Origin: a virus
DNA: 64,000 bases
Direction: 5' to 3' (one strand)
Virus record (IMG/VR): IMGVR_UViG_3300037091_000060
Coordinates: 1-64,000 of that record
Made by a program: the position numbers and the translations under genes. Under the pieces are notes generated by a model, which was given only the letters and a program-made list of their open reading frames with translations, did no database searches and was not told the DNA's origin. Positions 20,038 to 23,246 of this stretch are shown one piece after another. Position 1 is the stretch's first letter. Every line of letters begins with the position of its first letter.

Positions 20038-20312
20038 AGCACACAGTCATTAATGTTCGTAAACTGCAATCAACCCCCTGTCGATTCGTCGGCAGACCAA
20101 CGGTGTATGGGAATCCGTTTGTTCTATTAAATGAACGAGACAGAGACGAAGTATTAGTGAGATTCGCGGTGTACTGGTATGCGCCAGAGCAGAGGTGGCT
20201 CAGGGAGCGAGCGCTAGCAGAAATCACGGTACCAGTTCTCGGCTGCTTCTGCGCCCCTAAACGATGCCACGCGGATATTATTGCAGGGTACTTAGATTGG
20301 AAGAGACGATGA
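20034..20312 (+). CDS. DUF4326-like protein
   Basis: VGRPTVYGNPF..LGCFCAPKRCHADI. Confidence 0.85.
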   Translation: MKHTVINVRKLQSTPCRFVGRPTVYGNPFVLLNERDRDEVLVRFAVYWYAPEQRWLRERALAEITVPVLGCFCAPKRCHADIIAGYLDWKRR

Positions 20313-21538
20313 TTGAACTGCACTGCGACTTCGAGTCTCGCAACCCCGTTTATGGACCTAGTGATGTTGGTTTGCACAACTACATCTTTAGTCCGGAGAC
20401 GGAGCCGTTATTCTTTTGGTATCGACTCGGCGACGGCGAGTACAAGCGCGTGTCCTTTTATCTCGGCGAGATCATCGAGCAATCATCAGAACTTCATATA
20501 GCATTGATGAATCCAAATGTGACGCTCGTCGCGTACAATTCAAGTTTTGAGCGTTACATGTTCCAAAAGCTAAATTATATCATCCCCGCCAGTCGGTTCA
20601 TCGACCCGCAAGTCGGTGGTCGCTATCTGTCTCTCCCGGCCAGCTTGGAGGTACAAGGTAAGGTATTGGGACTCCCGCCACACTTGGCGAAGCGAGAGGG
20701 CGATCTCGTCAATTTCTTTTGTAAGCACCAGATTGTGAAGGCTACGAAGAAGAGAGAAGGCCGCGCGTATTACAATGACTGGAACTCTCACCCGAAAGAG
20801 TGGGCGGAGTTTCTTGAGTACGGTAAGCAGGACGTTGTGGCGGAGGGCGAATTGCTTCGCCGCATGCGCATCTTGGGCGCGCTGCCGCTGCCACCGTTCG
20901 AGCAGAAGATGTGGATTCTTGACCAGAAGATTAATGATCGCGGCATGCCCGTGGACGTCGAGTTCGTTCGCAAGATGTACAACCTTGGTCTCCGCGCGAA
21001 GGCTGAAGCTAAGAAAAACTTTGAAGATTTCACAGGCGTGAAGAACGCCAACTCGCCACAACAAGTCAAGGCGTGGGCCAAACCACAAGGCTACCCGTTC
21101 GACACCTTGAAGAAAGACACCGTCGCCTCGGTGTTGAAAGACCCCGAAATAAAACTCACTGATGCGTGCCGCGCTGCGCTAAAGATGCGCGCAGAGGCCG
21201 CCAGCACTAGCTACCAAAAACTTGGGAAGATTCTCGAATGCGTTTCGCCGGATGGGAGAGTGCATGGTCAATTCATCTTTATGGGTTCAAGCCGTTGCGG
21301 TCGTTGGTCTGGGAACGCAGTCCAGCTACATAACATGGCTCGCCCTGCTGTGGTCGGAGAAATTAAAGACGACAAGGGCAATGTTATCCACCCGGGCTAC
21401 GACTTCGAAGATCAGAAGGTAGTTCAAGAGGCCCGTGCAATGGTTCACGCGGAAGACTACGACGGCATCAAGGCCAAGTACGGCAGCGTACTCCTCGTGG
21501 TCAAGTCGCTCATCCGCACGGTGTTCGTCGCGCCATGA
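20309..21538 (+). CDS. polA: Family A DNA polymerase, N-terminal part (3'-5' exonuclease, thumb)
   Basis: DFESR, AYNSSFER, YGKQDV, INDRG, GRWSG..QLHNM, ends LIRTVFVAP. Confidence 0.9.
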   Translation: MIELHCDFESRNPVYGPSDVGLHNYIFSPETEPLFFWYRLGDGEYKRVSFYLGEIIEQSSELHIALMNPNVTLVAYNSSFERYMFQKLNYIIPASRFIDPQVGGRYLSLPASLEVQGKVLGLPPHLAKREGDLVNFFCKHQIVKATKKREGRAYYNDWNSHPKEWAEFLEYGKQDVVAEGELLRRMRILGALPLPPFEQKMWILDQKINDRGMPVDVEFVRKMYNLGLRAKAEAKKNFEDFTGVKNANSPQQVKAWAKPQGYPFDTLKKDTVASVLKDPEIKLTDACRAALKMRAEAASTSYQKLGKILECVSPDGRVHGQFIFMGSSRCGRWSGNAVQLHNMARPAVVGEIKDDKGNVIHPGYDFEDQKVVQEARAMVHAEDYDGIKAKYGSVLLVVKSLIRTVFVAP

Positions 21539-21672
21539 GATACATTAGCTGGCGTTGCAACGAAGTGCTGATGCCAATCCGCCGTGGGCTGTGGCGTTGG
21601 ACCAGTTTCGCGCATCCGAAGTTGCACTTGTTTTACGAGATCAAAGATAACGAACTATGGGAGTGGATGTGA
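21535..21672 (+). CDS. 45-aa Trp-rich ORF between the polymerase halves
   Basis: ATGA overlap with pol-N stop; MRYISWRC..WEWM. Confidence 0.5.
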   Translation: MRYISWRCNEVLMPIRRGLWRWTSFAHPKLHLFYEIKDNELWEWM

Positions 21673-22154
21673 TAACAAGAGCGAGAATTTCGAAAAATTG
21701 GCGCGAGCGCAATCGTCGCAACGGGTTATGCGTAGGCTGCACCCGCAAAGCTACCAATGGATTTGCCCTTTGTGACGTATGCCGCAAAGCTAGAGCTAAA
21801 TTTTCAGAGGGCCGCGTCGAGAAAGGCTTATGCCTTCGATGCATCAACGTCTCAGAACCCGGAAGAACAAAATGTTTGGACTGCGTACTCAAGGCCGCTT
21901 TGTATCAATTGAAACGAAGAGGTCTACCACAGAACGAACTTGAGATAGCTGCGGTAGCGTTTCATAATTATGCTGGATTCTGCGCTGCATGTCGTTTGCC
22001 GATTCCAACGGGTAAAGAGCGTTTTGACCACGACGATAGAAATAAAAAGTTTCGTGGAATTGTTTGTCACGGATGCAACGTAGCTATCGGTTTTGCCGAA
22101 GAGAACATTCAGAGATTATCTGGGTGTATCCGCTATCTGGAGAAGCAGCGATGA
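21657..22154 (+). CDS. Endonuclease VII-like homing endonuclease between the polymerase halves
   Basis: CxxC repeats; CAAC..FDHD..FRGIVCHGCNVAIG; AT-rich. Confidence 0.85.
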   Translation: MGVDVITRARISKNWRERNRRNGLCVGCTRKATNGFALCDVCRKARAKFSEGRVEKGLCLRCINVSEPGRTKCLDCVLKAALYQLKRRGLPQNELEIAAVAFHNYAGFCAACRLPIPTGKERFDHDDRNKKFRGIVCHGCNVAIGFAEENIQRLSGCIRYLEKQR

Positions 22155-23246
22155 CAACACGTTTTAACGTCTGCGATCTTTAATGCTATAGAAACCCGCG
22201 TCGGCGCGTGGCTGGCGGGGTGTACCGATTTGATGGACGTGTTCGTGCCGTACACCGACGTGTTTGGTGTTTACCAGCGCAACGGTCGCGACCCGTACCT
22301 CGCGTTCGCGTGCAAGATGTTTGGTCTCACGTACGACGTTCTTTACGCCGACTACAAAGGTAGAAACGGCAAAGAGCGCAAGGCTGCCGCGAAGCGTATG
22401 CGACAAGTCGCGAAGCCGGGAGTGCTGGGAGCCATCTACCGTCTCGCTGGCGGTATACTTATTCGCATTCACACAGACGAGTGTAAGCTGGCGCAAGCGA
22501 AGGGCGAGATAAAGGCCGACGAGTGTGGCTGCCCCAAGGGCAAGACTGGTCTCTGGGACTACGCGGACAAGATGGGCGTTGAGATGTCACAAAAACAATC
22601 GCACGAGGTGGTGGACATCTTCCGCAACTCGTACCCAGAAATATGTGACCCGAAGGTTGGAATTTGGAAGCAGTTGGAACTCGCGGTCGCCGACGTGATG
22701 CACCCGGACCACCCGGCCACGGTTCGTTATATCGGCCCGGGCAACTGCGTGAAGATCGACCGCATCAACTTCATTGACCCAGTGACGGGTGAGCAAGAGC
22801 GTCACCCGATGATGAGGATGCAATTACCGAGTGGCCGTTACCTGCACTATTTAGACGCGCGTCTCGAATCAACGATGATGCCGTGGAAGGGACAAGACGA
22901 CGATGGAAACGAAATTGACGTTTACCGTGACAGCCTCATTTACGCCGGAACAAATCAGAAGACTAAGCAGTGGGATATCTGGATTTCCACCCACGGCGGG
23001 AAACTCTTTGAAAATCTCGTCCAAGGAATCGCAAGAGATATTCTGGCCTACTGTCTTCTCCAATTTGAGTTGCGCGAAATGCCAGTCGTCGGGCACGTCC
23101 ACGACGAGGGTATCACGCTGGTGGAAGACGATTTGCTCTCGCCTACGTACCACGACATGGTCGAGATAATGAGTACGCCCATCAACTGGGCACCGGGCCT
23201 GCTGCTGGGCGCGGACGGATACGAAGAAACGTACTACCACAAGTGA
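22151..23246 (+). CDS. polA: Family A DNA polymerase, C-terminal catalytic part, +1 frameshift at 22178-22183
   Basis: Motif A CDL/NAIETRV split across frames at GAT CTT TAA T; motif B RQVAKPGVLGAIY; ENLVQGIARD; motif C HVHDE. Confidence 0.85.

Follow-up and report, generated by a model that had tools for sequence, protein, structure and literature searches.

In phage T4, a homing endonuclease gene (HEG) split the topoisomerase gene 39 in the mobA element, and a 50-nt bypass insert at the edge of that element blocks nicking by MobA (Bonocora et al. 2011, as cited in PMC5009743; bioRxiv 10.1101/2022.08.31.505936). Divided phage DNA polymerases have also been described. The N- and C-terminal halves of the PhiKZ family B polymerase (PolB) were found experimentally to form a stable, active 1:1 complex (PMC13648687), split family A polymerase (PolA) genes are present in MEP401-type phages and uncultured cyanophages (PMC10580990; bioRxiv 10.1101/325100), and the LUZ24-like polymerase is annotated as 'part I' and 'part II', with the cut between the exonuclease and polymerase domains (PMC3890496). 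Here, we describe a family A polymerase encoded by two genes, pol-N and pol-C, in positions 1 to 64,000 of IMG/VR virus record IMGVR_UViG_3300037091_000060 (the whole of this 64,000-nt stretch is referred to below as the window).

The window is part of a 100,420-bp viral contig from peat metagenomes that was judged 99% complete. In this locus, the polymerase is cut directly ahead of motif A, a HEG and a 45-aa open reading frame occupy the gap between the two genes, and the second gene is interrupted after 10 codons by a conserved frame break. Taken as a whole, we consider this account of a two-gene, frameshifted polymerase to be likely to hold; its individual parts are graded below.

Results

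The polymerase is divided between two genes immediately ahead of motif A

Pol-N starts at ATG 20309 (homologues begin M-x-ELHxDFES) and ends ...LIRTVFVAP, with a TGA at 21536-21538. Pol-C has its ATG at 22151 and a GGAG at 22139-22142, 8 nt ahead of it, and the 612 nt between the genes (21539-22150) are fully coding. A preliminary description of this DNA, made from the sequence alone, had reported a family A polymerase in two genes cut before motif A. All of the features on which it relied are present in the sequence, and it had correctly placed the VFVAP-stop end of pol-N, the gap, and the pol-C ATG with its Shine-Dalgarno (SD) sequence.

Relatives were examined at 29 IMG/VR loci, on 16 metagenome contigs, and on one contig mis-binned as 'archaeon'. 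In 16 distinct unsplit loci, the polymerase reads VFVAP-xGK-RFNVCDLNAIETR in one frame across the junction, and those nearest the consensus read VFVAP-xGK-RFNVCD-LNAIETR. Since the unsplit relatives read through with the same spacing, the distance from the Pro to the motif A Asp is kept exactly and no residue was lost at the cut, in agreement with the preliminary description. The DNA polymerase profile PHROG 17 was matched by pol-N at positions 665-1003 (E 1.4e-48) and by pol-C at positions 1007-1232; these matches are contiguous, and thus nothing is missing at the cut. With a profile of the 16 unsplit sequences, pol-N matched positions 3-411 and pol-C matched positions 398-721, and the junction aligned to Taq RIRRAFIAE/EGWLLVALD610, the slash marking the cut.

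Motif A (D-x-x-x-x-E-x-R) is present as CDL/NAIETR, only across a +1 junction, and aligns to Taq D610-YSQIELR. Motif B (R..AK....G..Y) and motif C, the latter aligning to Taq VHDE, both lie in pol-C and are invariant in the 16 unsplit relatives. Neither pol-N nor pol-C matched any Pfam family, PF00476 included, at E up to 0.01; PHROG 17 does match both halves, and the polymerase therefore belongs to a divergent lineage. A phmmer search of the Protein Data Bank with one unsplit relative returned no match, whereas a profile search succeeded. No second PolA and no PolB were found in the 99%-complete genome. This polymerase is the phage's only DNA polymerase, and it is of family A.

An AlphaFold2 model of the unsplit relative L025 (predicted local distance difference test score, 88.6; predicted template modeling score, 0.86) has the Pol I fold of exonuclease, thumb, palm, and fingers, and Foldseek matched it to Pol I of phage G20c and to Klenow (E 5e-17 to 1e-15; probability, 1.0). 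In this model, the cut would directly follow P404 and so lie in the short loop that joins helix 389-400 to the motif A strand (407-414) of the palm. Pol-N is thereby predicted to contribute the exonuclease and the thumb as well as the first elements of the palm, and pol-C is predicted to supply the catalytic strand, the fingers, and motif C. The coordinates of these genes and of the features between them are given in Table 1.

Table 1. Features of the divided polymerase locus (positions are those of the window)
Feature	Position	Strand	Evidence or content
pol-N, 409 aa	20309-21538	+	3'-5' exonuclease, thumb, and palm part ahead of motif A; open reading frame (ORF) call, PHROG 17
45-aa ORF	21535-21672	+	No family match; ATG overlaps pol-N stop as ATGA
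EndoVII-type free-standing HEG, 165 aa	21657-22154	+	Pfam PF02945, E 2.4e-9; PHROG endonuclease VII families
Conserved 48-nt cassette, putatively recoding	22139-22186	+	13 distinct alleles
pol-C first frame, MTTRFNVCDL then TAA	22151-22183	+	Holds motif A catalytic Asp
Proposed +1 shift site, CUU-UAA-U	22178-22184	+	Same in all 13 alleles
pol-C second (+1) frame, 354 codons	22182-23246	+	Remainder of motif A (NAIETR), motif B RQVAKPGVLGAIY, motif C VHDEG

A conserved cassette carries the frame break in pol-C

The preliminary description had presented pol-C as a gene with its own ATG and SD sequence. The ATG and the GGAG are there, but pol-C is not a simple ORF, as the ATG frame, MTTRFNVCDL, is closed after 10 codons by the TAA at 22181-22183. 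The long pol-C frame lies +1 to the ATG frame and continues NAIETRVGAWLAGC... to 23246; between the upstream TGA at 22152-22154 and motif A, it contains no ATG, GTG, or TTG. Joining the two frames at CUU/U gives CDL-NAIETR, identical to the unsplit relatives, and the break amounts to one extra T, at 22181.

The break lies within a 48-nt cassette composed of GGAGAAGCAGCG, an ATG or GTG, two to three variable codons, an Arg codon that varies synonymously, and YTT-AAC-GTC-TGC-GAY-CTT-TAA-YGC. Thirteen distinct alleles of this cassette were recovered (from the window, L002, L007, and the 16 metagenome contigs), and all of them have TAA as the stop codon. Downstream of the cassette, the +1 frame is free to vary at its third codon positions, and the synonymous sites around the cassette are saturated. 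At the codons that are fixed in the cassette, 25 non-frameshifted relatives vary: the Asn codon is AAT in 10 and AAC in 6, the Val codon is GTG in 9, GTA in 6, GTC in 3, and GTT in 3, and the Leu codon is TTG, CTG, CTT, or others. Among 69 loci, GGAGAAGCAGCG is confined to those that are frameshifted. The invariance of the cassette while the flanking synonymous sites are saturated argues for a conserved +1 recoding site. As judged from these alignments, CTT-TAA appears to be such a site, with a prfB-like slip codon and without an internal SD sequence.

When viral contigs were scanned for a cassette lacking the T, as a simple revertant would, there was no match. A scan of viral contigs for the ribosome-binding site (RBS) block alone was too unspecific, with more than 111 chance matches, none of them in a polymerase context. 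Elsewhere in the genome, no other CTT-stop junction was convincing.

The split is old, widespread, and under purifying selection

A search with pol-N returned 549 homologues. The best 120 of these were 56-89% identical and 319-457 aa long (all but one at least 365 aa), the nearest being P0001 at 89% identity. At least 120 protein clusters are therefore of half-protein size, and the split is widespread. The loci fall into three groups: the 16 distinct unsplit loci, 10 split loci without a frame break, and the 13 distinct CTT-TAA alleles, including that of the window. In L004, L030, L009, and L184, pol-N and pol-C overlap without any insert, as ATGA in all but L009, and L043/L064 have nothing in the gap between the two genes.

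In a tree of pol-C, the split forms lie in one clade with 100/100 support, except for L017, which was split independently. The unsplit L008 is nested within the split clade and may be a re-fusion. The split would go back to a single event at the root of a large clade of ~100-kb phages from soil and peat, and these would have retained it. L184 is a 57.7-kb contig binned as 'uncultured archaeon isolate LFW-28' that carries a 65%-identical split polymerase of the clade; wrong assignment of a phage contig to a metagenome-assembled genome is the most likely explanation. Synechococcus phage S-ESS1, which has two polymerase coding sequences, was considered as an example of the same split and rejected, as its break lies elsewhere and is C-terminal.

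Decay of the halves in relatives, which the preliminary description had raised as a sign against a working two-subunit enzyme, is not what we observed. The ratio of nonsynonymous to synonymous substitution (dN/dS) was 0.07-0.15 on both halves, with synonymous sites saturated, and was 0.07-0.14 for the +1 frame of pol-C compared with the other frameshifted alleles; the genome holds no other polymerase. Both halves are under strong purifying selection. L034, which is near-identical to L054, has a short frame-breaking deletion in pol-C at ~1743-1794. This relative is a defective variant or else, the contig being short, the deletion is an artefact of assembly.

The gap between pol-N and pol-C hosts many homing endonuclease genes

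The EndoVII-type ORF of the window consists of a CxxC-rich N-terminal part and an Endonuclease VII (HNH-type) domain, and its TGA overlaps the pol-C ATG. Genes of this type are found in the same gap in relatives, intact in L054 and L050 and as a deleted remnant in L041, and homologues lie at other positions in L013, L026, and L028. Being present, degenerate, absent, or elsewhere among relatives, this gene behaves as a mobile HEG. Other tenants were found in other lineages. The gap of L036 holds a second EndoVII-like type and a GIY-YIG-like gene, and L039 keeps a remnant of that second type; the gaps of L002, L052, and L029 hold other HNH types, and that of L007 holds a classical HNH gene. Counted across relatives, the HEG tenants belong to at least four types that are unrelated to one another, and the small ORFs fall into two families. 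One of these families, of 68 aa, occurs in L003, L011, and L041. The other is that of the 45-aa ORF, which is also found in the gaps of L036, L005, L006, and L044 and gave no database match. Members of the 45-aa family share the motif W-R/K-CNE-V/I-L ... WRWT ... HVF and directly follow pol-N in both frameshifted and non-frameshifted relatives.

In five loci, namely the window, L002, L007, L054, and L005, the insert begins at the CCATGA that contains the pol-N stop. Comparison of these loci indicates that the gap is a landing pad where free-standing HEGs would arrive, decay, and leave. The preliminary description had proposed a split polymerase created by non-splicing insertion of a HEG. Its non-spliced, two-gene arrangement stands. 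The split predates the present EndoVII gene, however, and that insertion of this gene created the split could at most be supposed, since it is one tenant among many and nothing marks it as the cause of the cut.

The extra base may protect the locus from homing endonucleases

The frameshift state changes at least five times on the pol-C tree. Two allele pairs, L052/L006 (both R-Y-R) and L054/L005, share flanking sequence and differ in frameshift state. Reversion in one step is always available, yet the extra base persists across saturated divergence, which implies a benefit. An intact or decayed HEG was present in 9 of the 11 frameshifted lineages with a readable gap, compared with 2 of the 10 non-frameshifted split lineages (one-sided hypergeometric tail, ~0.007 by our own calculation, uncorrected for phylogeny).

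The explanation that we prefer, though only tentatively, is that the extra base would protect against a HEG that targets motif A DNA, in the manner of the 50-nt insert of T4 gene 60. In a more specific form of this proposal, which is conceivable but which we would not yet rely upon, the extra T would be a 'savior' indel that breaks the HEG recognition site and is paid for by a new SD-independent +1 signal, made up of the 15 invariant upstream nucleotides and the gene's own RBS and acting 9 codons after initiation. Several points weigh against protection from HEGs: the cassette adjoins at least four HEG types, L043/L064 and L044 have the cassette and no HEG, and the association between HEGs and the frameshift carries no phylogenetic correction.

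Otherwise, the extra base would set the level of pol-C. The +1 site would then be purely a regulatory throttle or sensor, holding pol-C below pol-N or responding to release factor, and would be unrelated to HEGs. We regard this as a possible explanation, short of an even chance. Retention of the cassette without a HEG in L043/L064 and L044, and beside several HEG families elsewhere, would be expected of such a device; the strong invariant SD sequence followed by a stop resembles an attenuator, and prfB also uses a CUU-U site, for autoregulation (PMC5009743). A purely regulatory role fits less well with the close non-frameshifted split relatives and all of the unsplit relatives, which manage without a +1 site, or with the repeated changes of state on the tree. 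Nor does it account for the enrichment of the +1 site where HEGs or their remnants sit, or for a cassette that starts exactly at the end of the HEG ORFs, as in the T4 mobA element.

Ribosomal slippage would decode the break

We infer ribosomal slippage as the decoding mechanism. Translation of pol-C would start at ATG 22151, where the ATGA overlap probably links initiation to termination on the ORF before it, and the ribosome would read ten codons, including that of the catalytic Asp. At CUU-UAA, a fraction of ribosomes would slip +1, with the peptidyl-tRNA-Leu re-pairing from CUU to UUU. The next codon would then be AAU (Asn), and reading would continue into NAIETR.... The extra T and the 48-nt cassette would be maintained by selection. 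Two observations weigh against this account. First, no prfB-type SD stimulator is found 3 nt 5' of the CUU and the stop is UAA, not UGA, so that frameshift efficiency could be low. Second, a candidate hairpin in which the RBS arm is predicted to pair with the arm at the slip site (GGAG:CUUU, GCAGCG:CG-CUGC) had no covariation, and its energy was no better than that of shuffled sequence (z = 0.63).

Decoding by other means, whether by a four-base tRNA, by transcriptional slippage or RNA editing, or by termination and reinitiation, is improbable. The contig does carry ~33 phage tRNA genes, including Leu-UAG, Leu-CAA, and an odd Leu-UAA-like gene, but neither ARAGORN nor Rfam detected an AAAG-type anticodon or a tRNA with an 8-nt loop, and the ~33 genes include no CUUU decoder and no suppressor. 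The run of three T residues is too short for transcriptional slippage, known cases of which need at least 7 (PMC3711429), and the +1 frame is without a start codon near the stop. A low-scoring tRNA-like gene that was missed by ARAGORN lies on the same contig at ~96958-97047, minus strand (L183 3959-4048). Its variable arm is of type II, its anticodon loop is UUUAAAA, the base pair that closes its anticodon stem is mismatched, and its T arm is enlarged by an insertion of 8 nt; considered as a CUUU decoder, it was rejected, as it reads Leu-UAA instead.

Neither an intron nor an intein rejoins the halves

A scan of positions 19500-24500 with Rfam at E up to 10 found no intron and only two chance matches. 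At their ends, the two halves line up with the unsplit relatives position by position and carry no extra sequence, and no intein blocks were seen there in this alignment. Split relatives with a zero-length gap exist, leaving no room for an intron or intein. The absence of a group I intron core and of an intein, both noted in the preliminary description, is borne out by these comparisons. Restoration of a single chain by an intron (group I or group II) or by an intein (split or contiguous), with the ORFs of the gap being intron- or intein-borne, is thus very unlikely, although phage PolA genes often bear group I introns with HNH genes (literature cited in PMC10580990; PMC3428280). In addition to the points above, the gap is taken up by overlapping ORFs, relatives with an ATGA overlap and zero-length gap retain the split, and the extra T at 22181 would survive splicing.

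On these alignments and scans, the locus appears to encode a genuine two-gene polymerase without RNA or protein splicing. Because there would be nothing to splice at either level, pol-N and pol-C, each translated from its own start codon, would have to associate noncovalently, and assembly of the halves in trans is the presumed outcome. Least credible of all is that the frame break reflects faulty sequencing or assembly, or the decay of a pseudogene, with pol-C a plain ORF or dead. Errors that lengthen a short run of T by one are common, and L034 has its own frame-breaking deletion further inside pol-C. However, 13 distinct alleles, which come from many samples and several assemblers, share the identical T, the TTT run was reproduced without an indel in two independent Logan assemblies (55x and 10x, both from samples that are possibly the source of this DNA), the downstream +1 frame has a dN/dS of ~0.1 among frameshifted alleles, and this is the only polymerase in the genome.

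Gene neighborhood and other features of the contig

The plus-strand gene order is Prim-Pol/helicase, a DUF4326 ORF, pol-N, the 45-aa ORF, the EndoVII-type ORF, and pol-C. All of the gene junctions in this run are start/stop overlaps, mostly ATGA, and scans for promoters and terminators gave signals at background only. Among the sequencing runs in which the locus was looked up, none from RNA contained it. A blastn search against annotated phages returned no match; by tblastn, relatives were found at ~32-37% only, such as Xylella phages Sano and Salvo and the Chi-like phages.

Two further HNH/EndoVII-type nuclease ORFs, at 17435-17995 and 25063-25587, lie on either side of the replication genes. 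The first of these is of the same type as that in the polymerase gap of L002, L029, and L052, which argues that HEGs move among sites of the replication module in this phage group.

The final 38 nt of pol-C (23210-23247; ...ADGYEETYYHK-stop) are repeated at 23391-23428 with 89% identity, and the repeat copy forms the end of a 57-aa Cys-rich (B-box-like) ORF directly downstream. A 159-nt unit containing the 57-aa ORF is itself duplicated (23241-23399 and 23550-23708; 92%). This unit looks like a small cassette that was inserted at the 3' end of pol-C and brought a replacement copy of the gene end.

Outside the window, at ~96408-96721 of the same contig, minus strand (L183 3409-3722), there is a match to bacterial class A RNase P RNA (RF00010; 93 bits; E 6e-28), slightly below the gathering score of 100. 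It sits within the array of ~33 phage tRNA genes and was partly miscalled as transfer-messenger RNA by ARAGORN.

Discussion

The extent to which an essential enzyme tolerates division and still works is shown by split replicative polymerases, in this case by a cut within the palm beside the catalytic Asp, and such polymerases mark the repeated landing sites of selfish nuclease genes. The conserved +1 site described here would be a natural recoding signal outside prfB, without a known stimulator and unusually near the start codon. If protection from HEGs proves true, the bypass of T4 gene 60 would be one instance of a general solution to an arms race, and recoding would let essential phage genes escape HEGs where the protein sequence cannot change. 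There is also a practical consequence. Genes of this pol-C type are cut short by gene callers, so that motif A is lost, and surveys of polymerases in soil viromes will therefore mis-annotate this clade.

As a recoding site, the locus most resembles prfB. Both have a CUU-U slip site followed by a zero-frame stop, a product that needs the shift, and conservation across diverged lineages. However, prfB has CUU-UGA-C, and the stop here is UAA in all 13 alleles, which argues against feedback specific to release factor 2. The SD-like element that lies 3 nt upstream in prfB is replaced here by an invariant YTT AAC GTC TGC GAY together with the gene's RBS, and the site differs from that of prfB in following initiation by only 9 codons.

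As a divided polymerase, it shares with the other phage examples an organization in two genes, which in some cases are separated by small ORFs or HEGs. The cut differs from that of LUZ24 in lying directly ahead of motif A, inside the palm, and the PhiKZ enzyme is of family B. A frameshift in the second half is not described in the reports on PhiKZ, the MEP401-type phages, the cyanophages, or LUZ24. The nuclease in the gap is comparable to F-CphI and to other HEGs with the EndoVII motif (PMC6083498), in that these are free-standing, have the EndoVII catalytic motif, and are distributed patchily beside conserved genes; the sequence relation is at the domain level only.

The closest precedent is the mobA and gene 39-60 region of T4, as described in the reports cited above. 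In both systems, a free-standing HEG is found in the gene of an essential DNA enzyme at its catalytic site, and the HEG ORF overlaps the start of the downstream gene out of frame. In both, the downstream gene begins with a short stretch that stands in for parental residues, and an insert that requires recoding follows within a few codons, where the conserved element ends on its 3' side. Loss of the element in related lineages is seen in each, with possible re-fusion represented here by L008. There are also differences. The gene is a PolA here and a topoisomerase in T4, and the insert is 1 nt, placed 10 codons from the start and calling for a +1 slip at CUU-UAA, whereas that of T4 is placed 46 codons in and calls for a 50-nt hop. 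Finally, in contrast to the T4 element, the cassette described here is not tied to one HEG family, being found beside EndoVII-like, other HNH, or GIY-YIG-like genes, or with none.

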